A stretch of 24,890 nt of DNA from Candidatus Thorarchaeota archaeon (GTDB taxonomy: Archaea; Asgardarchaeota; Thorarchaeia; Thorarchaeales; Thorarchaeaceae): the NCBI GenBank assembly GCA_048882385.1, contig JBHLRQ010000037.1:1-24890 (forward strand), in the 5' to 3' direction. Shown piece after piece: positions 2,118 through 24,890 of the stretch (position 1 is its first letter; every line of letters begins with the position of its first letter). The notes under the pieces are model-generated. The model searched no databases. It worked only from the letters and a program-made list of their open reading frames with translations, and was not told the DNA's origin. The position numbers were made by a program, and so were the translations under genes.

Positions 2118-3626
2118 TTGTTGGGAAAAATGGAGAGATTACTTGAATCTATTCCTGAAAAAATGGAAGAACTGCTGGTTGAGGCTACCAAACTAGTAAG
2201 GAAGTCAAAGAAAGTTTACGCTTTTTCACACATCGATGCTGATGGAATTTCAGCTCTAGCTATAATCACTTTGATGCTTGATCGAGAAGGCAAAGAATAC
2301 GAATGGAAAAACATCCACCAAATAAACTCGGAATCGATTCTTCATATTGAGGATGAGGTACGTGCTTACAAACCTGACCTGGTTATTTTTAGTGATTTCG
2401 GAACTGGACAAATTGAACTTGTGAAAAATCACATTGTGGATATAGAAGGATTGAACTCTGTAATTATACTTGACCATCACCTTCCAACAAATGATGAAAT
2501 TCAGACTGAAACAGATAATTCAACAAACTCGCTAATTGAGATTAATCCAAGTCAACATGGGTTGAGTGGAAGCTACGATCTTTCCGGAGCAGGAACAGCT
2601 TTCCTCTTGGCATATTTTGTTTCACATAGCAATATCGACCTATCAGAGCTAGCAATCGTAGGAGCATCTGGAGACTTGCAGGACTACTATGGACAGGGTT
2701 TCGTTGGGCTGAACAAAGTGATTGTTGAGATGGGAGAAGATGCAGGATTTCTCACTGTCACAAGGGACCTCACATTCTTTGGGATTCATACTAGACCACT
2801 TCCATACCTCTTGCAATATGCAACAGACCCCTATCTCCCGGGACTTACAGGAGCGGAGGAAGCATGTTATGCGTTCCTTCAGGAACGTGACATCGACATG
2901 AAATCTAACGATGAATGGAGGACATGGGTGGATCTGGAAGCAGACGAGAAACAACAGATCATTCAAGGGATAATCCAAATCGTGCTAGCAAATTACGATG
3001 ATCCTAGAATAGCTCAGGGTATAATCGGAGATGTAGTAATTCTCTCCAGTAGACCGCCAAAAACGGAAATGCGTAGTGCAAAGGAGTTTTCGACACTACT
3101 GAATGCATGCGGGCGAAATAAGCGTCCTGAAGTGGGAGTACGTGTTTGTATGAGAGATCCTGATGCTTTCGCTGAAGGACGAAATCTCCTGCAACAGCAT
3201 AGAGCAAATCTTGCTTCGGCTCTAAGAAGATTGGAAACTGACGGTTATGAGGAGAGACCGGGAATGTATATTGTAAATGATCCGGAAACGCCGGATACGA
3301 TTATTGGAATAGTAATCGGAATGGCTCAAGGGTCAATGATTATTCCAATCGACAGGCCTGTCATCGGAATTAGTACAAATACATCTGAAGAGAGTCCACT
3401 TGTGAAACTCTCTGGACGTGCTCACAAGTCGCTAATTGAGAGAGGAGTCAATCTCAAAGAAGTCTTTGTAGAAGTTGCAGAACAACTCAATATCAGTTAT
3501 GACATGCTTGTTGCAGAGGCTGGAGGACATCCAATGGCAGCTGGTGCTTTTATTCAGAAAGCACAGCTCGACGAGTTCCTAGATCTAATATCATCCAAAC
3601 TCGCAAAGAGTCTGGGTAATGTTTAG
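2118..3626 (+). CDS. recJ: Archaeal RecJ-like DHH/DHHA1 phosphoesterase (RecJ/GAN/Cdc45 family ssDNA exonuclease)
   Basis: Motifs HIDADG, SDFG, LDHH, SGAG, EFSTLLNACGR, LSGR, GGHPMAAG; no OB domain, as in the archaeal type. Start may be ATG 2130. Confidence 0.9.
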   Translation: MLGKMERLLESIPEKMEELLVEATKLVRKSKKVYAFSHIDADGISALAIITLMLDREGKEYEWKNIHQINSESILHIEDEVRAYKPDLVIFSDFGTGQIELVKNHIVDIEGLNSVIILDHHLPTNDEIQTETDNSTNSLIEINPSQHGLSGSYDLSGAGTAFLLAYFVSHSNIDLSELAIVGASGDLQDYYGQGFVGLNKVIVEMGEDAGFLTVTRDLTFFGIHTRPLPYLLQYATDPYLPGLTGAEEACYAFLQERDIDMKSNDEWRTWVDLEADEKQQIIQGIIQIVLANYDDPRIAQGIIGDVVILSSRPPKTEMRSAKEFSTLLNACGRNKRPEVGVRVCMRDPDAFAEGRNLLQQHRANLASALRRLETDGYEERPGMYIVNDPETPDTIIGIVIGMAQGSMIIPIDRPVIGISTNTSEESPLVKLSGRAHKSLIERGVNLKEVFVEVAEQLNISYDMLVAEAGGHPMAAGAFIQKAQLDEFLDLISSKLAKSLGNV

Positions 3627-15481: not shown

Positions 15482-17293
15482 TCAATCTATATCATCGCTA
15501 TCAAGCCAAGCTCTCAGAGCGATGGCTGCTTTTTCTGACATCCCGTCAACAGCCGCCAGTTCATTCACATCAGCTTTTTTCACGTTTTCAAAACTTCCGA
15601 ATGCCTGAAGCAATGCTGACCTCCGTTTAGGTCCTATGCCCGGTGCCTCCTCAAGAATAGAACCAGTGAACCTCTTCTCTCTCAGTTTGTGATGATATTT
15701 CTGAGCGAACCTATGAGCCTCATCACGTATCCTTTGAATCAGATGTAGTCCTTCCGATCCAATGTCCAATTCAATTCCCTGTGGCGCGTTTCTCGTAAAC
15801 AATATTTCTTCCTGCTTAGCTACAGCGACTACTGGAAGATAGTCTAGTCCAAGCTCCGTGAGAGCATCTAATGCAACATTCAGTTGTCCCTTTCCCCCAT
15901 CGATGAGGATTAGATCTGGTAACATATCCTTCCGTTCAAGAACTCCCTTGTAGCGTCGATAAACTACTTCCCTCATCATGGCATAATCATCAGGAGTTTC
16001 TTTGATACGGACTTTGAACATGCGATATCGTTTGTTGTACGGTTCGCCATTCTTGAAGACTACACAGGAACCAGTGGGATCAGTTCCCTGAATGTTAGCA
16101 ATGTCAAAGCCTTCGATACGCATAGGTGCTACGTTGAGACCTAAGGCTTCTTTTAGTTCCTTAACGCCATCATGTACAATTTCTTCTTCACTTTCACCAA
16201 GAATCAACATCTTCCGTAGAGAGCGATAGGCATTCTTGTTTGCCATCTCGACTAACTCGGATGTTCTATCATCATCTGGTGTCATTATCTGAACTGGATG
16301 ACCATTCACTTCACCGAGCCAGGTGCTCAGTTGTTTCATCTGGGGAATCTTAGTTGGAACTATGATTTGGTCTGGAAGACGAGGTATTGTGAAATAGAAC
16401 TGCTCGATAAAGGCTAGGATGACTTCTGTGTCAGGAGTGTCCAAATCTATTTCGAAATAGAAATTGTCTACACCAATCATCCGACCATTTCGAACAATTA
16501 GCATGTCAATGAGAGCAGCTTGCTCGGTACGTGATATTCCAAGAATGTCACTGTTCGACCCTTCAAAGCGAACGACCTTCTGTCGACTCATCAGAATTTC
16601 AAGGTCAGTCAATCGGTCTCTAAGTTCAGCAGCTTTTTCAAACTGCATATTTTCCGAAGCAGTATCCATCTGACCCTTCAGAGACTTTCGAAGATCATCT
16701 GGACGGCCTTCAAGGTAGTAACTCATTAGTTCTACTAGAGACCTGTACTCATCAAATGGGATGTGGTCTTCACAGGGTCCAGCGCATCTATCCAAATGAT
16801 AGTCCATACATGCCCGTTTCACTTTCTCTGGATCTTTACACATCGCTATTGGGATTAGTTTCCGAATTGTGTCTAGGAATCGCTCAAGTCGTTTTGTACT
16901 TCCATATGGTCCATAATAGGTCGCACCATCTCTCTGGGCCTCACGAGTAATCTCAAATGTGGGAAGGCGTTTGGAAAGGTCAACGCGCACCCAAGCATGC
17001 CGTTTGTCATCTTTCAGGGCTATGTTGTATTTTGGCTGATGCTTCTTGATGAGGGTTTGTTCCAAGACCAGTGCTTCGCGTTCTGTATTTGTAACGATTG
17101 TCTCGAGGTCTCTTGCAGCAAACATCATTTCGCCTAATCTTCGAAAAAGTCCAGTCTTTCTCAAGTAGGAGCTGACTCGCTTCCTAAGATACTTGGCTTT
17201 TCCAATGTATAGTATCTCTCCCTTCTCGTCTTTCCAAAGATAGACTCCTGGACTGTCAGGCAAGTCCTCTACGAGAGTTCTGAGATCAGTCAT
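15482..17293 (-). CDS. uvrC: Excinuclease ABC subunit C
   Basis: GIY-YIG (PGVYLWKD..LYIGKA), Cys-rich region, UVR domain (FEKAAELRD), RNase H-like IEGFDIAN and IDGGKGQL, HhH GIGPKRR. Confidence 0.97.
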   Translation of the reverse strand: MTDLRTLVEDLPDSPGVYLWKDEKGEILYIGKAKYLRKRVSSYLRKTGLFRRLGEMMFAARDLETIVTNTEREALVLEQTLIKKHQPKYNIALKDDKRHAWVRVDLSKRLPTFEITREAQRDGATYYGPYGSTKRLERFLDTIRKLIPIAMCKDPEKVKRACMDYHLDRCAGPCEDHIPFDEYRSLVELMSYYLEGRPDDLRKSLKGQMDTASENMQFEKAAELRDRLTDLEILMSRQKVVRFEGSNSDILGISRTEQAALIDMLIVRNGRMIGVDNFYFEIDLDTPDTEVILAFIEQFYFTIPRLPDQIIVPTKIPQMKQLSTWLGEVNGHPVQIMTPDDDRTSELVEMANKNAYRSLRKMLILGESEEEIVHDGVKELKEALGLNVAPMRIEGFDIANIQGTDPTGSCVVFKNGEPYNKRYRMFKVRIKETPDDYAMMREVVYRRYKGVLERKDMLPDLILIDGGKGQLNVALDALTELGLDYLPVVAVAKQEEILFTRNAPQGIELDIGSEGLHLIQRIRDEAHRFAQKYHHKLREKRFTGSILEEAPGIGPKRRSALLQAFGSFENVKKADVNELAAVDGMSEKAAIALRAWLDSDDID

Positions 17294-17379: not shown

Positions 17380-17952
17380 CTACGTGCGTTGCCTTGAGAA
17401 GGTTGTAGTATTTGCCATAGCAGAACGCCAGCGAACAATTGCATCACATTCTGATCCCCTTGAACAACCATAGTAAGTGTACTCCGGACAAGCGATGCAC
17501 GGTGAGGTTTCCTCGGGATATTGTGTATCTACGGACCTCTCTATCTTCTTCAACTCATCAAGACGTTTTTGAATAGAATCATCATTCTTTCGCATTCTCT
17601 CATCGCATATTCTGTAAGCTTCTTCTAGTTGTCCTAGATCAACAAGTGTTAGAGCGAGTTCTTCCCAAAATGGAATAGGCCCAGGGTTGAGAGAAACAGC
17701 TTTTCGAAGTGCCTCCTCAGCTTCCCTGAGCCTACCCAAAGATCGCAAGTATTTCCCCAGAGCAAACCATGCAAGTACATCCCGTGGAAAAGTAGCCAGG
17801 CGTGTTCTGAGGTCCGATTCATACATCGCACTAGAAATCTTTGTAGTCTTTGCCAATGCAGGCCCTGAGTCAGACGACTCGTCTCTTCGTATCATATGTG
17901 TGCGTGTCCTCCCGGCGGACATTGCGAACAGTTGTCCAAGCTGGACAACCAT
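17380..17952 (-). CDS. TPR protein with C-terminal four-cysteine motif (putative Fe-S/Zn)
   Basis: Two TPRs (AWFALGKYLRSLGRLREAEEALRKAVSLNP), then PCIACPEYTYYGCSRGSECDAIVRW. Start uncertain (17952, 17922 or 17895). Confidence 0.75.
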   Translation of the reverse strand: MVVQLGQLFAMSAGRTRTHMIRRDESSDSGPALAKTTKISSAMYESDLRTRLATFPRDVLAWFALGKYLRSLGRLREAEEALRKAVSLNPGPIPFWEELALTLVDLGQLEEAYRICDERMRKNDDSIQKRLDELKKIERSVDTQYPEETSPCIACPEYTYYGCSRGSECDAIVRWRSAMANTTTFSRQRT

Positions 17953-18152: not shown

Positions 18153-21011
18153 TCAGTTCAATGGACCATTTCGTACATTCGGTCCATACAATGCATCTCT
18201 AAGATGGTTGCCTGTGTAAGACTGCCAGACTTCACAAATCTCCTCAGGAGTTCCTGTCGCTACAACCTCGCCACCAGCATCACCACCCTCAGGACCCAAG
18301 TCAATTACCCAGTCCGCAGTTTTGATCACCTCAAGGTTGTGCTCCACAATGATCGCGGTGTTACCTGCATCTACAAGTCGATTGATGACTCTGAGAAGAA
18401 CATGAACATCAGAAGCTGAAAGACCGGTAGTCGGTTCATCGAGAAGATATAGAGTCCTGCCAGTTGCTTTCCTTGAGAGCTCTGAGGCAAGTTTCATACG
18501 CTGAGCTTCTCCGCCACTCAATTGAGTTGCGGGCTGGCCTAACTGAAGGTATCCCAATCCGACATCGACTAAAGTTCTGAGTTTGTCTGCAATCTTTGGA
18601 ATATCAGCAAAGAACTCGAGAGCCTCTTCAATCGTGAGTGACAAGATCTCTGTAATGTTCTTGCCCTTGTACGTGACTTCAAGGGTTTCTCGATCGAATC
18701 GTTTTCCCTTGCACACATCACAGGTCATGAAGACATCACTCATGAAGTGCATTTCAACCTGCAAAAGACCACTACCCTTGCACTTCTCACAGCGTCCAGC
18801 TCGAGTGTTGAAACTGAATCTTCCAGCATTGAAGCCACGAGCTTTTGACTCAGGCATCATGGCAAACAAATCACGGATTTCACCAAATGTCTTTGTGTAG
18901 GTCGCAGGATTACTACGGGGTGTCCTTCCAATAGGTGACTGATCAACCAAAACCAGTCTATCGATGTTCTCAATTCCCTCAATGGAGTCATAGGGTCCTG
19001 GACGAACACTGGATTTGTTCATCTGTCGGGCGAGTGCTTTGTAGAGTGTGTCGTAAGTAAGACTACTTTTTCCAGCACCCGATACACCAGATACACAGAT
19101 CATCTTACCTAGTGGGAACTCCACGTCGATTCCTTTCAGATTATTTGTCCGTGCATTTTTGACTACAATCCCATCTCCATTTCCGTTTCGCCTCTCATTT
19201 GGCACCGGAATCTGTTTCGCACCAGCTAGATACTGAGCGGTCAAGGACTTCGGATCAGCTAAAACTTCTGATGGTGGACCATCAGCAACAACCTGACCTC
19301 CATGAGTACCTGCGAGAGGGCCAAGATCGATGATGTGGTCAGCTGCAGTTATCGTGTCTCTATCATGCTCAATTACAACCACAGTGTTTCCAAGAGATCT
19401 CAGATGGTAGAATGTTTCTATCAGTCGGTTGATATCTCGAGGATGGAGACCTATAGAAGGTTCGTCAAGACAATAGAGGACTCCAGTAAGAGCTGAACCG
19501 ATCTGCGTAGCCAATCGGATTCTCTGACTTTCGCCGCCTGACAAAGTCATTGAGGCTCTGTCAAGGTTGAGGTATTCCAAACCCACGGATTCGAGGAACT
19601 TGAGTCGTGCTCGTATTTCTTTCAAAACTAACTCTGCTATCTTCTGTTCACGTTCTGTAAGTTCGATATTCTCAAAGAACTTAGAAGCCTCTTCAATGGT
19701 CATTGATGTCAGCTCATCGATAGGCTTTCCACTTACTGTAACTGCAAGGCTCTCAGGTTTGAGTTTCCGACCGCCGCATGACTCGCAGGTAAGCTTCCTG
19801 GAGAACTCGTTGGCTATCCTTCGTGCCCACCACTGATAATACTGCTTGTCACTGCTCTTGCTGGTTTCAAAGAGCCTTTCCATCCAAGGAACAAGACCGA
19901 TCCAGTTTCTTTCGATCTCCCAGTATGACTCTTCACCCTCCATTATATAGGAGAGCATGACATTCGGTTTCCCCCACATGAAGACATCAATCTGAGACTT
20001 TGTGAGGTCCTTGTACATTGTATCCAGAGTGAAGTTCTTCACCTCACCCAACGTCTGAAGCCGCTTCAAGAACCAAGCACGTTCTCGACCGTTCACTCTT
20101 CGACTGATGTCTCGAATGTCCATGTTCTTGTCCGGTACTATCAAATCAGGGTCAATTGACATTGTAACTCCGAGACCGTTGCAGGTTGGACAAGCTCCGT
20201 CAGGTCGATTATACGAGAACGCCTTTGGTCCAAGTTTGTCATATTGAATTCCGCATTTTGGACACATGAGTTGTTCTGCGAAGACAAGGTCATTCATACC
20301 CTCTCTCGCAACGATGGCTGCACCTTCTCCTGTTTCGAGTGCAGTTTCTAGAGATCCTATCAGTCGTTCTCGGTTCTTCTGACTCAATTCTAAGCGATCC
20401 ACTACAACCTCAATGTCATGTTTCTTCCGAGCATCCAGCTGGACATCTTCGATGTCTAGAATATCTCCATCTGCACGAACTCTAGCAAAACCGTTCTTGA
20501 ACAGACCATCCAACTCTTCCTGATGATTGCCGGTTTCACTCCTTACAACTGGAGCCAGTATGTGAATCCTCTGACCACCATTCTCATCAAGAAGGAGACG
20601 TGCGGCAGACTCTGCTGTGAGCTGCTCCATAGGTCTACTGCACTCCACACAGTGAGGTACTCCAATGTTCGCGTAGAGCAATCGTAGGTAATCATGAATT
20701 TCTGTACTTGTCCCAACTGTACTTCTCGGATTCTTCGTTCTGCCCTTCTGCTCGATTGAAATCGCAGGAGGTAGTCCAGTGATCTTGTCCACCTTAGGTT
20801 TATCGAGACGTCCAAGGAATCGTCGAGCATAGGATGATAGTGACTCAACATATCGGCGTTGACCTTCTGCGAAGATTGTATCGAATACAAGTGTGCTCTT
20901 TCCTGAACCACTCGGACCTGTCACAACAACAAGACGGTCTCTGGGAATGTCGACATCTATCTTCTTGAGGTTGTGTTCCTCAGCCTTGCGCACCTGGATA
21001 AAGCCAGTTAT
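18153..21011 (-). CDS. uvrA: Excinuclease ABC subunit A, second (diverged) paralogue
   Basis: Two ABC ATPase modules (GPSGSGKST, LSGGE, LDEPSIGLH; GVSGAGKSS, LSGGE, LDEPTTGL), zinc fingers, UvrB-binding and insertion domains. Homology extends 6 codons upstream of track start GTG 20993 to an ATA at 21011. Confidence 0.93.
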   Translation of the reverse strand: MTGFIQVRKAEEHNLKKIDVDIPRDRLVVVTGPSGSGKSTLVFDTIFAEGQRRYVESLSSYARRFLGRLDKPKVDKITGLPPAISIEQKGRTKNPRSTVGTSTEIHDYLRLLYANIGVPHCVECSRPMEQLTAESAARLLLDENGGQRIHILAPVVRSETGNHQEELDGLFKNGFARVRADGDILDIEDVQLDARKKHDIEVVVDRLELSQKNRERLIGSLETALETGEGAAIVAREGMNDLVFAEQLMCPKCGIQYDKLGPKAFSYNRPDGACPTCNGLGVTMSIDPDLIVPDKNMDIRDISRRVNGRERAWFLKRLQTLGEVKNFTLDTMYKDLTKSQIDVFMWGKPNVMLSYIMEGEESYWEIERNWIGLVPWMERLFETSKSSDKQYYQWWARRIANEFSRKLTCESCGGRKLKPESLAVTVSGKPIDELTSMTIEEASKFFENIELTEREQKIAELVLKEIRARLKFLESVGLEYLNLDRASMTLSGGESQRIRLATQIGSALTGVLYCLDEPSIGLHPRDINRLIETFYHLRSLGNTVVVIEHDRDTITAADHIIDLGPLAGTHGGQVVADGPPSEVLADPKSLTAQYLAGAKQIPVPNERRNGNGDGIVVKNARTNNLKGIDVEFPLGKMICVSGVSGAGKSSLTYDTLYKALARQMNKSSVRPGPYDSIEGIENIDRLVLVDQSPIGRTPRSNPATYTKTFGEIRDLFAMMPESKARGFNAGRFSFNTRAGRCEKCKGSGLLQVEMHFMSDVFMTCDVCKGKRFDRETLEVTYKGKNITEILSLTIEEALEFFADIPKIADKLRTLVDVGLGYLQLGQPATQLSGGEAQRMKLASELSRKATGRTLYLLDEPTTGLSASDVHVLLRVINRLVDAGNTAIIVEHNLEVIKTADWVIDLGPEGGDAGGEVVATGTPEEICEVWQSYTGNHLRDALYGPNVRNGPLN

Positions 21012-23869
21012 TTTGTCTTCCCTCCTGATGCGCTCTTTGAAAGCTTAAGGAGCTCCTTCATGTACTGACCTGTGTAGGATGATTCACAAGCAACGATTTC
21101 CTCAGGTGTACCTTCAGCAACGATATAGCCACCTTCATCGCCGCCCTCAGGACCTAAGTCAATCACATGATCTGCTGTCTTGACGACATCCAGTTGATGC
21201 TCGATGACGAGGACAGTGTTTCCAAGGTCGACCAGCTGATGTAGGACTTCAAGCAGTTTCTTTATGTCAGCGAAATGAAGTCCAGTTGTGGGCTCATCAA
21301 GCAAGATCAGTGTCTGTCCAGTGGCAGGTCTTGAGAGGAACTTACTCAGCTTGATTCTCTGTCCTTCTCCACCACTCAAAGTCGTTGCAGGCTGACCTAG
21401 TTTCACATATCCCATGCCAACCGCAGTGAGAGTCTCAAGCCGACGATGTATTGATGGTATTCCCTCAAAGAACTCGTATGCTTCATCAATCCGCATGTCC
21501 AAGATATCAGCAATGTTCTTCCCCTTGAATCGTACCTGAAGGGTCTCTCTGTTGTATCTCCGACCCTTGCATTCACTGCAAGTGACCTGAACTGGCGGGA
21601 GAAACTGCATCTCGATGACCTCGACCCCAGCACCCTTACAGGTTTCACACCGTCCACCCTTCACATTGAAACTGAACCTACCAGGTTTGTATCCTCGAAT
21701 CTTCGACTCAGGTAAGTTTGCAAACATATCTCTCAGTGGACTCCAGAGACCGACATATGTGGCAGGATTCGAACGAGGTGTTCTACCGATGGGGCTCTGG
21801 TCAATAACTATCACTTTGTCTAGCTGGTCAATTCCGACTATCTCATCATGGTCACCGGGCTTTGCATCAGCGCGGTGAAACTTGCGCGCAAGCTCTCTCT
21901 GAAGGGTTTCTACAACAAAGGATGATTTTCCGGATCCACTGACTCCAGTAACACAAATGAACAATCCAAGTGGGATTCGTACGTTTAGATTCTTGAGATT
22001 GTTATGTCTACAACCACGGACCTCTATGAAGCGACCATTTGACTTTCTCCGTTCTTCTGGGACTGGAATCTCATCTTCACCACGAAGGAATTTCGCAGTA
22101 AGTGAATTCTTTGACTTGAGAATCTTGTCTAAAATCCCAGCGACGACAACCTCTCCACCTTCTGCACCAGCACCAGGTCCGAGGTCTATAACATAATCTG
22201 CATTCCTTATGGTCTCTTCATCATGCTCGACAACAAGAACTGTGTTCCCGAGGTCTCTGAGGTTCATGAGGGACTTCAGTAAACGCAGGTTGTCCCGTGC
22301 ATGTAATCCTATACTAGGCTCATCACAGACATAAGTGACTCCGACAAGGTTTGAACCGATCTGGCTCGCGAGACGTATCCTCTGACTTTCACCACCAGCT
22401 AGAGATGGAGCGGGTCGTTCCAGTGTCAGGTATTCAAGCCCCACATCCTGCAGGAAACCGATTCTTCCAAGAATCTCTTTCTTGATGGGGTCAGCGACCG
22501 GTCTGAGCTCCTTCTTGACCTTTACATTCTCGATGAAGTCCCGCAGGTCCTTGATTGAAAGACTTCCTAGACTTGAGATGGACCGGTCTCCAAAAGTGAT
22601 AGCCTGTGATTCGGGTTTGAGACGATTCCCCTTGCAGATAGGACAGGGTTGTGCAGACATCAGACGCTCGATCTCTCTCCGTCGCCATTCCGACTTTGTC
22701 TTCTTGTATGTTCGCTGTGCGCGTGGAATGAATCCCTCGAAGCTCCTCTTGTAGTGACCTGAATATTTCACTTCATAGTCTTCATTCTCGCCTTCCCAAG
22801 TCACATCATACTTCTCAGTGGTGCCATATAGGACAATCTCCTTCTGTTTCTCAGTGAAGTCTTTCCATGGCATGTCAAGTGTGAATCCGTATGTGTCCGC
22901 TACTTTCTTGAAAAGATTCCTTCTCAGCACCCAGTTGTCTGGAATCATGGCACCCTCATTCAGTGACAGATTAGGATCCTTGATGAACAGGTCAGGGTCG
23001 AACTCACGAACGACACCGAGTCCAGTACAATTCGTGCAAGCTCCCTGAGGTGTATTCCAAGAAAATATTCTTGGCTCCATCTCTGGAAGACTGATGCCAC
23101 AGTCTGCACAAGCGAACTGCTCAGAGAGTGTGAGAGGTCCATCACTCTTCTCAATCGTGACGACACCATCCGCCATATTGAGTGAAGTCTCTATGGCCTC
23201 AGCTATTCTACTACGTTCTGACTCCTTCACACGAATTCTGTCAACAACTACTTCTATAGTATGCTCAAAGTAACGGTCGAGGGACAATCCATCTTTAAGT
23301 TCCATCAACTCGCCATCTACATGAGCACGGATGAAACCCTTCTTGATTAGGTCCCGGAACTCCTTCCGGTATTCTCCCTTCCGCCCGCGTACTATGGGAG
23401 CTAGAACCATGATTTGAGTTCCTTCTTCCATCTGCAGGACTCGGTCAACCATCTGCTGAGAAGTCTGAGGTTCAATCACCTTTCCGCACTTTGGACAATG
23501 CGGAACACCCACTCTCGCATACAGTAGTCTCAAGTAATCGTAAATTTCTGTAATGGTCCCAACTGTACTTCGTGGGTTGCGGCTTACACTCTTCTGGTCA
23601 ATGGAGATTGATGGTGAAAGACCTGACATGAAGTCGACCTTTGGTTTCTCTAACATCCCAAGAAACTGTCGGGCGTATGCTGACAGCGATTCGATAAATC
23701 GCCTCTGACCTTCAGCGAATATTGTGTCGAATACCAGAGAGCTCTTTCCTGAGCCACTCACACCTGTGACAACTGTAAACTTGTTCTTCGGAATCTCGCA
23801 GTCGATATGACGGAGGTTGTGTTCAGCGGCACCAACGACTACTATCGACTGAGGACCATCTAGTGGCAT
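21008..23869 (-). CDS. uvrA: Excinuclease ABC subunit A, first paralogue
   Basis: GVSGSGKSS, AEGQRRFIESLS, NPRSTVGT, APIVRGRKGE, second GVSGSGKSS, GRTPRSNPATY, CxxC fingers; ATG 23869 after AAGGTG (track start is GTG 23911). Confidence 0.96.
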   Translation of the reverse strand: MPLDGPQSIVVVGAAEHNLRHIDCEIPKNKFTVVTGVSGSGKSSLVFDTIFAEGQRRFIESLSAYARQFLGMLEKPKVDFMSGLSPSISIDQKSVSRNPRSTVGTITEIYDYLRLLYARVGVPHCPKCGKVIEPQTSQQMVDRVLQMEEGTQIMVLAPIVRGRKGEYRKEFRDLIKKGFIRAHVDGELMELKDGLSLDRYFEHTIEVVVDRIRVKESERSRIAEAIETSLNMADGVVTIEKSDGPLTLSEQFACADCGISLPEMEPRIFSWNTPQGACTNCTGLGVVREFDPDLFIKDPNLSLNEGAMIPDNWVLRRNLFKKVADTYGFTLDMPWKDFTEKQKEIVLYGTTEKYDVTWEGENEDYEVKYSGHYKRSFEGFIPRAQRTYKKTKSEWRRREIERLMSAQPCPICKGNRLKPESQAITFGDRSISSLGSLSIKDLRDFIENVKVKKELRPVADPIKKEILGRIGFLQDVGLEYLTLERPAPSLAGGESQRIRLASQIGSNLVGVTYVCDEPSIGLHARDNLRLLKSLMNLRDLGNTVLVVEHDEETIRNADYVIDLGPGAGAEGGEVVVAGILDKILKSKNSLTAKFLRGEDEIPVPEERRKSNGRFIEVRGCRHNNLKNLNVRIPLGLFICVTGVSGSGKSSFVVETLQRELARKFHRADAKPGDHDEIVGIDQLDKVIVIDQSPIGRTPRSNPATYVGLWSPLRDMFANLPESKIRGYKPGRFSFNVKGGRCETCKGAGVEVIEMQFLPPVQVTCSECKGRRYNRETLQVRFKGKNIADILDMRIDEAYEFFEGIPSIHRRLETLTAVGMGYVKLGQPATTLSGGEGQRIKLSKFLSRPATGQTLILLDEPTTGLHFADIKKLLEVLHQLVDLGNTVLVIEHQLDVVKTADHVIDLGPEGGDEGGYIVAEGTPEEIVACESSYTGQYMKELLKLSKSASGGKTK

Positions 23870-23910
23870 CTCTGATGCACCTTTACCCTTATCGTTGGTC
23901 ACACTCTTCA

Positions 23911-24890
23911 CTATTGTATTCCCTCTATCCTCTTCCTAAGTGCTGCAATCTGATCCCGCAACCGTGCAGCCCTCTCAAACTCTAGATTCCTTGCTGCCTC
24001 TTTCATCTGCTCTTCCATATCTATGATGTAATCTGTAAGCTCATCGACCTCGAATGGGTCAAAGTCCTCAAGCTTCGTCTGACTAGTCTTCTCAGGTGTC
24101 TTTATGCCCTCCGCGATGTCTCTGATACCTTTTGTAATCGATTCGGGTTTGATACCATGCTCCTCATTGTACTTCAATTGATACTCACGTCTACGATTAG
24201 TCTCATCAATGGCTGTCTGCATTGCATTCGAAACATGGTCACCATAGAGGATGACTCGTCCGTTCGCGTTCCGAGCTGCACGGCCCATTGTCTGTATGAG
24301 AGCCCAACCTGTTCGGAGGAATCCTTCCTTGTCTGCGTCAAGGATTGCAACCAGACCTACTTCAGGTATATCGAGACCTTCTCTTAGAAGATTGATTCCC
24401 ACTAACACATCGAACTTACCTTGACGGAGCTGCCGAACAATCTCAATCCGCTCCACAGTTCCTATATCAGAGTGGAGGTAACGTGCCTTTACTCCTGCTT
24501 CCACAAGATACTCACTCAACATCTCAGATGTCTTTTTAGTGAGAGTTGTTACAAGGACCCTGTCACCCATTTTAACCGTGGTTTGAATCTCTCCTAGTAG
24601 ATGGTCAACCTGTCCAACCACAGGTTTTACGGTGATTGCAGGGTCAAGAAGACCAGTCGGTCTCAACAGTTGTTCCACGACCTGCTGACTTACTTTCATC
24701 TCATAAGGTCCGGGTGTTGCGCTCGTATAGATGACATGTCTCATATATTTCTCAAACTCTGGGAACTTGAGTGGTCTGTTATCAATGGCTGATGGTAGTC
24801 TAAATCCATAATCAACAAGGTTGTTCTTTCGTGCAAGATCACCATTATACATACCACGAATCTGAGGAATGGTCATGTGGCTCTCATCAA
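23911..24890 (-). CDS. uvrB: Excinuclease ABC subunit B, 5' part outside the window
   Basis: DESHMTIPQ (motif II at the window edge), [38 protein letters not shown]-terminal UVR domain. Confidence 0.97.

Follow-up and report, generated by a model that had tools for sequence, protein, structure and literature searches.

UvrA is the textbook homodimeric damage sensor. The presence of two adjacent uvrA genes in the DNA of a Candidatus Thorarchaeota archaeon raises the question of whether their products act as partners in one asymmetric sensor or each as a sensor of its own. According to PMC11985968, it is an open question how a symmetric (UvrA)2B2 assembly gives way to a pre-incision complex that is asymmetric and has a single UvrB on the damaged strand. 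We analysed the locus within a stretch of 24,890 nucleotides (contig JBHLRQ010000037.1), hereafter the window.

Gene content of the locus and the two UvrA products

All the genes considered are encoded on the minus strand, head to tail, in the order uvrB–uvrA1–uvrA2–TPR gene–uvrC, which agrees with the contiguity of the first three given in the preliminary description. The features are:

23911..24888, minus strand: uvrB, 3' part, its 5' end lying beyond the window edge; stop TAG at 23913-23911; Pfam UvrB, Helicase_C and UVR
21008..23911, minus strand: uvrA1 (product A1), class I UvrA of 967 aa; stop TAA at 21010-21008
21021..21025, minus strand: Shine-Dalgarno-like GGAGG, 9 nt ahead of the overlapped start position of uvrA2
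21008..21011, minus strand: overlap of the uvrA1 stop and the uvrA2 start, ATAA in the window and ATGA or GTGA in 20/20 orthologous junctions
18153..20993, minus strand: uvrA2 (product A2), class I UvrA of 946 aa from GTG 20993, in the -1 frame relative to uvrA1
17380..17952, minus strand: TPR gene between uvrA2 and uvrC, 190 aa; Pfam TPR_2, TPR_14 and others
15482..17293, minus strand: uvrC, 603 aa; Pfam GIY-YIG, UVR, UvrC RNase H domains and HhH

The partial uvrB product matched NF003673 (NCBIfam) with 492.8 bits over profile positions 335-652, and the uvrC product scored 549.4 bits against TIGR00194 (cut-off 285.45). The TPR gene was detected by tblastn in 13 loci, namely 12 of the 17 in which uvrC was found and L014, a locus that ends within the TPR gene itself. 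The nearest named loci belong to Candidatus Thorarchaeota / Promethearchaeota (Asgard archaea), in line with the archaeal host proposed earlier. These assignments describe a complete operon for nucleotide excision repair (NER) of the bacterial type in a Thorarchaeota archaeon.

BLASTP aligned A1 and A2 end to end, with 461/941 identities (49%) and 22 gaps, and neither open reading frame contains an internal stop. This level of identity over the whole length indicates that the pair is neither an assembly repeat nor a recent duplication. Both products passed the equivalog cut-offs of NF001503 (A1, 1404.7 bits; A2, 1327.9 bits; cut-off 1147) and TIGR00630 (1332.4 and 1282.4 bits; cut-off 729.8). 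They also matched the Pfam models of the UvrB-binding domain (PF17760, UvrA_inter; 128.4 bits for A1 and 99.7 for A2) and of the insertion domain (PF17755, UvrA_DNA-bind; 87.1 and 54.8 bits), for which the cut-offs are about 23 bits. Three zinc modules are present in both proteins; the cysteines at A2 positions 115/118, 244, 268/271 and 403/406 are invariant across all groups compared, and a C-terminal CxxC...CxxC is visible in both translations. The motifs GxSGSGKS, LSGGE (LAGGE in module I of A1), DEP and EH occur in both modules of 12/12 A1 and 11/11 A2 sequences. The preliminary description had therefore been right about two full-length UvrAs of some 950 aa, each with two ABC modules, zinc fingers, a UvrB-binding domain and an insertion domain, and about the lack of a recent duplication or assembly repeat. 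The motif deviations it had listed were likewise found: LAGGE and YVCDEP in module I of A1, and GLS for GLH (module II) and RSETGN for RGRKGE in A2. Across clades, the Walker A, Walker B and H-loop motifs and the core of the signature are preserved in each of the four half-sites of the pair; as far as the motifs tell, these deviations therefore inactivate no ATPase site.

Both proteins resemble the canonical class I UvrA homodimer (2R6F, 3PIH, 3ZQJ, 9GXK) in their end-to-end alignment, domain order, three zinc modules, ATPase motifs and interface residues; A2 matched the solved structures with E=0 (1107 bits to 9gxk and 1080 bits to 2r6f). Canonical UvrA, however, is the product of one gene and forms a symmetric homodimer, whereas here two coupled genes encode proteins that are 49% identical, one of which carries clade-specific changes in the wedge, in D-loop II and in the UvrB-binding domain.

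Gene junctions, conservation of the tandem and selection

The preliminary description had let the pair begin at 23869. The ATG there is not kept in orthologues, and the conserved A1 start is GTG 23911-23909, whose first base is also the last base of the uvrB stop (TAGTG); a GTG or ATG stands at this position in all 14 orthologues in which the N-terminal motif was detected. At the next junction, the TGA stop of uvrA1 overlaps the uvrA2 start in 20/20 readable orthologous junctions (ATGA in 14 and GTGA in 6), a pattern that bears out the coupled expression suggested earlier. A GGAGG-like string (ggagg, gaggg or gggagg) lies at the same place in most of these 20 junctions, as judged by eye. In the window, the overlap codon is ATA (21011-21009) and the first standard uvrA2 start is GTG 20993. 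Should ATA at 21011 initiate, the uvrA2 product would have 952 aa instead of 946. An assembly error at the ATAA junction was ruled out, since contigs from three public runs (X1, X3 and X9), each of a different study, carry identical letters; one of these runs may be the source sample.

In 23 of 25 related Thorarchaeota-type public loci, A1 immediately precedes A2, and the other two begin inside A2. In genomes of the same genus, the adjacent pair was found in 14/24 and A2 in 21/24, often at contig ends; adjacent pairs also occur in 10 further genomes of other genera of the family and in the sister family (G025). No unlinked A1 and A2 copies were seen among the relatives examined, that is, the 25 loci, the 24 same-genus genomes and the further family genomes. 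The tandem is thus conserved across genera of the family, and the unlinked arrangement that would have spoken against a partnership, according to the preliminary description, did not appear.

Across the same 10 genome pairs, dN was 0.058-0.215 for A1 and 0.059-0.219 for A2, and about equal for the two in each of the 10. Saturation at synonymous sites (16/20 comparisons gave a dS of about 2-3.7 or none that could be computed) leaves dN and four rough ratios as the usable measures; where dS was computable, dN/dS was about 0.02-0.03. A comparison with 26 single UvrAs, in which 303 columns reach at least 92% conservation, gave 17 deviating columns for A1, 18 for A2 and 57 for a third paralogue. 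A2 is therefore not under relaxed selection, which had been named as a sign against the paired reading. A1 and A2 are both under purifying selection and alike constrained.

Fused double-length UvrAs and asymmetry within paired systems

At least 8000 longer proteins matched at E<=1e-50. Among the matches listed, 120/120 proteins (1811-2353 aa) hold two UvrA units, and fused UvrA-UvrA proteins appear in records labelled Heimdallarchaeota, 'Asgard group', Thorarchaeota and Bathyarchaeia. In two genomes (G028 and G220), the fused gene is the only class I UvrA found with the queries used. The fused UvrAs (NF001885 / PRK00635; Asgard archaea, Planctomycetota, Gemmatimonadota, Armatimonadota and Poribacteria; 1.8-2.3 kaa) resemble A1/A2 in the joint expression of two class I units that are complete and diverged. 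The divergence between partners is also alike, with 61% identity in ATP-binding domain I and 30-36% in the UvrB-binding domain both between A1 and A2 and between the N- and C-halves of Asgard fused proteins. A1/A2 differ from them in being two polypeptides read in two frames, whereas a fused UvrA is one chain. Double-length UvrAs are single polypeptides of about 1800 aa or more, and here a stop and a conserved start separate A1 from A2; each of the two reached 687-697 bits against NF001885 (cut-off 3054), covering profile positions 7-909 only. Elsewhere in the genome of the window (contig C6) there is a class II-like protein, a double form of 1652 aa.

The relationship between the tandem and the fused proteins varied with the tree. 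A1 grouped with the N-halves of Asgard fused proteins in three of five trees: the quick IQ-TREE LG+G4 run (SH-aLRT 97), the careful one (UFBoot/SH-aLRT 77/94) and the mixture model with 70 rows (SH-aLRT 95). FastTree placed A1 beside the C-halves, and the mixture model with 40 rows grouped it with bacterial fused proteins. The 70-row mixture tree keeps A2 and the C-halves apart by a branch with support 97; a tree constrained to join them was not rejected by the AU test (LG+G4; p-AU 0.713). Single characters conflict on the tie between A1 and the N-halves, position 55 being F in A1 and the Asgard C-halves and Y in A2 and the N-halves. In bacterial fused UvrAs, the N- and C-halves are sister clades (100/100; careful IQ-TREE LG+G4), which points to a separate origin of the bacterial fused forms. 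The preliminary description had called the tandem a split analogue of double-length UvrA and had looked to a phylogeny of both copies and the fused halves. Double-length UvrAs do exist, also in other Asgard families, and A1 joins the Asgard N-halves in most of the trees; a homology by splitting did not emerge, as the topologies are unstable and the five trees disagree.

A further likeness lies in the UvrB-binding domain. At A2 position 154, all single UvrAs (26/26) and all A1 (12/12) carry a lysine, and the N-halves of fused proteins carry K or R (Asgard, 17/17; bacterial, 12/12). None of the 11 A2 sequences and none of the 12 bacterial C-halves has this lysine. In Asgard C-halves, an invariant arginine (A2 position 210) is lost in 13/17. 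In the alignments, therefore, all three paired systems share one kind of asymmetry, as the second unit, of A1/A2 and fused systems alike, lacks an otherwise invariant residue of the UvrB-binding domain. Further clade-specific fixed differences between A1 and A2 are S82P, the change of GLH to GLS and Q65R in the wedge, where all 11 A2 sequences have R and every other group has Q. Compared with single UvrAs, identity in the insertion domain is 31.9% for A2 and 36.0% for A1.

A proposed heterodimeric sensor and its alternatives

Linkage, stop/start coupling, equal constraint, intact motifs, fused relatives, the recurrent asymmetry, a fitting interface and the grouping of A1 with Asgard N-halves in three of the five trees suggest that A1 and A2 form a UvrA1/UvrA2 heterodimer in place of the usual homodimer; we assign this reading a probability of about 0.5. 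A heterodimeric UvrA is a proposal of this analysis and not a described family, and our literature search, which lay outside subscription journals and supplementary files, found no papers on tandem or fused UvrA in Asgard archaea. We infer both the heterodimer and any division of labour within it from the features named above. One transcript would yield A1 and A2 in fixed proportion by coupled translation (TAGTG at the uvrB/uvrA1 junction and, in relatives, ATGA at uvrA1/uvrA2). The two proteins would then pair through the conserved ATP-binding-I interface, and the heterodimer would do the job of the usual homodimer, probing DNA and passing it to UvrB and then UvrC. Asymmetry would be built in: A1 would contribute a canonical UvrB-binding domain, and A2 one without the invariant lysine, together with a wedge in which Gln is replaced by Arg and a D-loop II that reads GLS for GLH.

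A comparable arrangement is known from heterodimeric ABC proteins encoded by tandem half-genes, in which side-by-side paralogous ABC subunits replace a homodimer and allow asymmetry, and A1/A2 may be their analogue. Such proteins usually have one degenerate ATP site. In A1/A2, by contrast, the four half-sites are all intact, so the pattern typical of heterodimeric ABC proteins is missing, and this counts against the heterodimer, as does the unstable tie of A1/A2 to the fused proteins. Stop/start overlaps are, moreover, frequent in operons irrespective of any binding between the products. The dimer-interface residues given for Clostridium thermocellum UvrA in PMC12796330 are conserved in both A1 and A2, which implies that the two can fit each other. 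The self-contacting residues match those of single UvrAs (position 55 is Y or F, position 66 is F). Nothing in the interface thus speaks for an obligate heterodimer, and the homodimers A1A1 and A2A2 seem just as possible.

This last point favours a different explanation, in which A1A1 serves general NER and A2A2 another range of lesions or another condition, both working with a common UvrB and UvrC and sharing an operon only for co-regulation. We regard it as possible, albeit somewhat unlikely. Both proteins are complete, with intact catalytic motifs and interface residues that permit homodimers; the changes in A2 fall at DNA contacts (the arginine at wedge position 65 and the lower identity of its insertion domain), and the further UvrA paralogues in genomes of the family indicate that the family is diversifying. 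A2 also retains the whole UvrB-binding domain, including R210 and E216, which we take to be the counterparts of R216 and E222, the residues that contact UvrB in G. stearothermophilus; on that assumption, A2 could function with UvrB by itself. Against separate homodimers stand the tight 4-nt stop/start overlap in every junction read and the covalently fused pairs of sister lineages, whose units are unable to act apart. An independent NER sensor would, in addition, be expected to retain the lysine that is invariant in single UvrAs, and every A2 has lost it.

Free mixing without specialisation, in which A1A1, A1A2 and A2A2 would all be active and the second copy would serve dosage or robustness, appears improbable. 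The conserved interface, the complete set of motifs and the equal constraint on A1 and A2 would all agree with it, but a divergence to 49% identity, held under strong purifying selection and with clade-specific fixed differences, is a poor fit with redundancy. Redundant copies are usually lost, whereas this pair is kept across the whole family.

It is very improbable that A2 stands outside NER as a class II-like protein that handles DNA-bound drugs or adducts without UvrB and remains in the operon only by descent. Class II UvrAs (D. radiodurans UvrA2, DrrC and Ecm16) do resemble A2 in being a second UvrA paralogue beside a canonical one, and A2 has lower Pfam scores than A1 for the UvrB-binding and insertion domains, as well as the loss of the invariant lysine. 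According to PMC9328131, however, class II proteins work independently of UvrB and have neither zinc module 1 nor a UvrB-binding domain, whereas both elements are present in A1 and in A2, with 71.5% identity in the UvrB-binding domain among A2 orthologues. A2 also passed the class I equivalog cut-offs, and these genomes already contain separate class II-like proteins.

Finally, a programmed -1 frameshift at ACA AAA TAA that would fuse both frames into one double-length protein can be discounted almost entirely: A2 does lie in the -1 frame, which in the window is open for 51 nt upstream of GTG and reads ...ITGFIQ, a match to the conserved N-terminal strand, and a run of four A precedes the stop; among orthologues, however, neither the A-run nor the A2 frame ahead of the overlapped start shows conservation, this frame is closed 18-108 nt upstream, and an ATG or GTG start lies exactly at the overlap in all 20 junctions, on which grounds the joining of A1 and A2 was rejected.

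The heterodimer reading could be extended to a stronger statement, which we consider doubtful: that Thorarchaeota rely on a damage sensor that is obligately asymmetric, and that thousands of fused UvrA-UvrA proteins are its covalent form. A1 or the N-half, with its canonical UvrB-binding domain, would recruit the first UvrB, and A2 or the C-half, with an altered UvrB-binding domain, wedge and D-loop, would be the 'support' protomer. If this were true, the recognition/support asymmetry and the (UvrA)2-UvrB1 intermediate, which according to PMC11985968 are seen only transiently in the M. tuberculosis homodimer, would be hard-wired, and the strand that receives UvrB would be fixed.

A natural, diverged UvrA pair, along with abundant fused UvrA-UvrA proteins, would let the two protomers be mutated separately, so that the roles of the ATP sites, the wedge, the insertion domain and the UvrB-binding domain could be assigned to each protomer. 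For the Asgard archaea, the locus means that bacterial-type NER was not a plain import of single-copy genes, as one family keeps four UvrA-like genes.

Gene order, gene starts and conservation of the tandem

The window carries five consecutive minus-strand genes, which were assigned with Pfam and NCBIfam:

23911 to the window end, minus strand: uvrB, 3' part
21008-23911, minus strand: uvrA1 (product A1, P0002), 967 aa
18153-20993, minus strand: uvrA2 (product A2, P0001), 946 aa
17380-17952, minus strand: TPR protein, 190 aa
15482-17293, minus strand: uvrC

A1 and A2 are 49% identical over their whole length (461/941), and both exceeded the cut-off (1147 bits) of the curated UvrA equivalog NF001503, with 1404.7 and 1327.9 bits, respectively. 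Both contain the UvrB-binding (PF17760) and insertion/DNA-binding (PF17755) domains according to Pfam, and solved UvrA structures align with A2 end to end. The preliminary description of two full-length, diverged uvrA genes in tandem was thus borne out. The remaining genes of the window are ordinary chromosomal genes (DHH/DHH-CID nuclease, TPR, methyltransferase, phosphoribosyltransferase, phosphorylase, nitrilase, PLD-like); the nuclease gene, at 2118-3626 (plus strand), encodes a 502-aa DHH / DHH-CID / DHHA1 protein of RecJ/GAN-like architecture, as expected in an archaeal chromosome. The genome, of which the window forms contig C37, comprises 3.7 Mb in 256 contigs (completeness 95.3%, contamination 4.94%). 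The public loci closest to A2 (73-92% protein identity) are named Candidatus Thorarchaeota, Promethearchaeota, in one case 'Hermodarchaeota', and 'uncultured archaeon', and the next-best matches, at approximately 50-53%, come from bacteria and methanogens. The host is an Asgard archaeon with bacterial-type NER, in agreement with the adoption of UvrABC by mesophilic archaea, including Asgards, stated in PMC12993045.

The ATG at 23869, initially proposed as the A1 start, is not conserved. The conserved start is a GTG at 23911 that shares its G with the uvrB stop (TAGTG, 23909-23913, a one-base overlap); this position is GTG or ATG in the 14 orthologues in which the N-terminal motif was located, and five loci gave no motif. 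In all 20 orthologous junctions the A1 stop TGA overlaps the A2 start (ATGA in 14, GTGA in 6), most of them with a GGAGG-like string 8-10 nt upstream, and from this start the orthologues read M-T-G-Y/F-I-x-V-R-K-A-E-E-H-N-L. Together with the uvrB-uvrA1 overlap, this chains the whole uvrB-uvrA1-uvrA2 stretch by overlapping stop and start codons. The junction of the window reads ATAA, with TAA as the A1 stop and ATA at the A2 start position (21011-21009, minus strand), so that standard initiation would first be available six codons further on, at the GTG at 20993. The same letters occur in contigs from three sequencing runs of three studies, one of which may be the source sample. Either the ATA initiates behind the conserved GGAGG, or the GTG does so six codons later, in which case A2 would lack half of its first strand.

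The preliminary description had left it to related genomes to show whether the tandem is conserved, and we found it across genera. In 23 of 25 Thorarchaeota-type loci A1 immediately precedes A2, and the contigs of the remaining two start within A2. Of the 24 genomes examined from the window's genus, 21 yielded A2, with an adjacent pair readable in 14 and A2 cut by a contig end in the rest; A2 was not found in G009, G018 and G019 (83%, 93% and 74% complete). In a survey of 251 genomes drawn from the phylum (completeness ≥80%), 53 of the 65 genomes of the window's family matched A1 at E ≤ 1e-150, 45 of them at least twice; adjacent pairs occur in at least 10 genomes of other genera among the matches listed. 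A sister-family genome, G025, has uvrB, a first uvrA and a second uvrA in order, the last split over two contigs. The order uvrB-A1-A2-(TPR)-uvrC is kept in every locus of sufficient length, and no unlinked A1/A2 pair was seen among the relatives examined, with the survey matches taken as listed.

A small TPR gene separates uvrA2 from uvrC in 12 of the 17 related loci in which uvrC was found; with L014, which has the TPR gene and ends before uvrC, this makes 13 related loci in all. In several relatives an additional 1-5 kb lies between uvrA2 and the next gene of the operon, the TPR gene or uvrC (loci with the small TPR gene or extra DNA: window 17380-17952; L009, L017, L019, L023, L026, L028, L032).

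Selection and motif integrity

Relaxed selection on A2 had been named as evidence that would count against a heterodimer. Across 10 orthologous genomes, the dN of A2 (0.059-0.219) moves in step with that of A1 (0.058-0.215), whole-sequence dS is saturated; dN/dS was 0.017-0.033 in the four comparisons in which it could be computed. Of the 303 alignment columns with a conservation of 92% or more in 26 single-copy UvrAs ('singles'), 17 differ in the A1 clade, 18 in the A2 clade and 57 in a third paralogue of the same genomes. Every A1 and A2 sequence examined retains Walker A, the signature core, Walker B and the H-loop in both modules, and the zinc-module cysteines are likewise intact. The motif deviations previously noted are real and clade-specific: signature I has A for S in 11/12 A1 (also in 5/26 singles), the residue before DEP in module I is C in 11/12 A1 and L in 26/26 singles, TTGLH of module II has S or A for H in 11/11 A2, and the RGRKGE motif is lost in A2. 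As judged from the alignments, these changes remove no catalytic residue.

Fused UvrA-UvrA proteins and phylogeny

Full-length UvrA-UvrA fusions are very common. A search restricted to longer proteins gave at least 8000 matches at E ≤ 1e-50 (8000/8000 scored), and each of the best 120 (P0004-P0123, 1811-2353 aa; also locus L089:4496-10246) contains two UvrA units. Source names among these 120 include Heimdallarchaeota, 'Asgard group archaeon', Thorarchaeota and Bathyarchaeia, as well as the bacterial Isosphaeraceae/Tautonia/Gemmataceae, Gemmatimonadetes, Armatimonadota and Poribacteria. The phylum survey revealed such ORFs (1917-1975 aa) in two other Asgard families, f5 and f26, and in genomes G028 and G220 the queries used detected no class I UvrA besides the fused gene. 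In other Asgard families a single class I UvrA is accompanied by class II-like proteins; in this sample, therefore, the fused, single and tandem states sort by family.

Clade support was taken from a careful IQ-TREE analysis (LG+G4, 70 rows). A1 grouped with the first gene of G025 (100/100) and A2 with the second (99/92); the Asgard N-halves (first units of the fused proteins) formed a clade (100/99), and the Asgard C-halves (second units) another with the third paralogue and the G028 C-half (95/92). In the bacterial proteins the N-halves form the sister clade of the C-halves (100/100), which indicates a separate origin of the bacterial fused proteins. Since the Asgard halves lie far apart, the fusion seems to have arisen at least twice. 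The placement of A1 and A2 relative to the fused halves differed among five analyses.

Placement of A1 and A2 in five tree analyses
FastTree, 114 rows: A1 beside C-halves; A2 among single UvrAs
LG+G4 quick, 70 rows: A1 with N-halves (SH-aLRT 97); A2 among single UvrAs
LG+G4 careful, 70 rows: A1 with N-halves (77/94); A2 next to the C-half clade (31/95)
Mixture model quick, 70 rows: A1 with N-halves (95); A2 apart from C-halves, behind a branch of 97
Mixture model quick, 40 rows: A1 with bacterial fused proteins (78); A2 with C-halves and third paralogue, on one side of a branch of 87

A single clade of all 'second copies' was not rejected by the AU test (LG+G4, p 0.713); the tree under this constraint gained 31.9 lnL over the quick free tree and, by subtraction, fell about 4.7 short of the careful one. 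Individual characters disagree as well: A2 shares with the C-halves the change of GLH to GL[S/A] with F to A after it, and a P to S at A2 position 752; A1 shares with them R to K at A1 position 42, Y55F and Pro at A2 position 842.

Further UvrA-like genes were observed. The third paralogue (G000:C45:7869-10667, L003; full-length, with a 952-aa open frame, 45% identical to A2) recurs as a conserved gene in five or more genomes of the genus and groups with the Asgard C-halves in trees; it has lost the wedge residues (Y62T, Q65T/S, F66M; C. thermocellum numbering) and several UvrB-binding-domain invariants. A 1652-aa open frame (G000:C6:42573-47531, L004-L007) consists of two truncated, class II-like units, each missing most of what lies between about residues 120/276 and 262/400; double forms of ~1630-1650 aa occur in several Asgard families. 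The Bathyarchaeia protein P0061 nests within the Asgard fused clade, beside a Heimdallarchaeota protein.

Pairing of A1 and A2

In C. thermocellum UvrA, according to PMC12796330, the ATP-binding-I domains form the dimer interface (R54, Y55, S58, F66, G80, L81, P83, A84, I85, L507, M508, V510) and Y62, Q65 and F66 form the DNA-entering wedge. Mapped by structure alignment, A1 and A2 both conserve these residues; differences occur at Y55 (F in 11/12 A1, Y in 11/11 A2), Q65 (R in 11/11 A2 against Q in all other groups), S82 (P in 11/11 A2) and M508. From this conservation, A1 and A2 can fit each other. Each can also fit itself, as expected for the main rival, two separate homodimers with UvrB and UvrC in common, which we consider clearly less probable than the heterodimer.

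The UvrB-binding domain of A1 is 43.4% identical to the singles and that of A2 35.9% (singles among themselves, 42.9%); for the insertion domain the values are 36.0%, 31.9% and 41.2%. Among A2 orthologues the UvrB-binding domain is 71.5% identical. At the Lys of RGRKGE, all 26 singles and all 12 A1 have K, and the N-halves have K or R (Asgard 17/17, bacterial 12/12); none of the 11 A2 or the 12 bacterial C-halves has the Lys. An invariant Arg (A2 position 210) persists in A1, in A2 and in the bacterial N- and C-halves, whereas only 4/17 Asgard C-halves have R there. The most telling pattern is that, in all three paired systems, the first unit has a canonical UvrB-binding domain and the second lacks one otherwise invariant residue.

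UvrA, class II UvrAs and double-length UvrA models are already known; the literature searched yielded no account of full-length class I UvrAs as a conserved pair with translational coupling, nor of fused UvrA forms in Asgard archaea. The best-supported reading, to which we give a probability of about 0.5 on sequence comparison, is that UvrA1 and UvrA2 may form a heterodimeric sensor whose function parallels that of the fused UvrA-UvrA proteins, close to the asymmetric heterodimer first suggested. Free mixing of A1 and A2 without specialisation is rather improbable, and a role of A2 outside NER very much so. A −1 frameshift fusing both ORFs into one protein is hardly credible, because in relatives the A2 frame lacks conservation ahead of the overlap and does not stay open there.

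For M. tuberculosis UvrA, PMC11985968 describes a UvrA2-UvrB1 intermediate and two insertion domains in unequal 'recognition' and 'support' roles. An A1/A2 heterodimer would make this asymmetry permanent.
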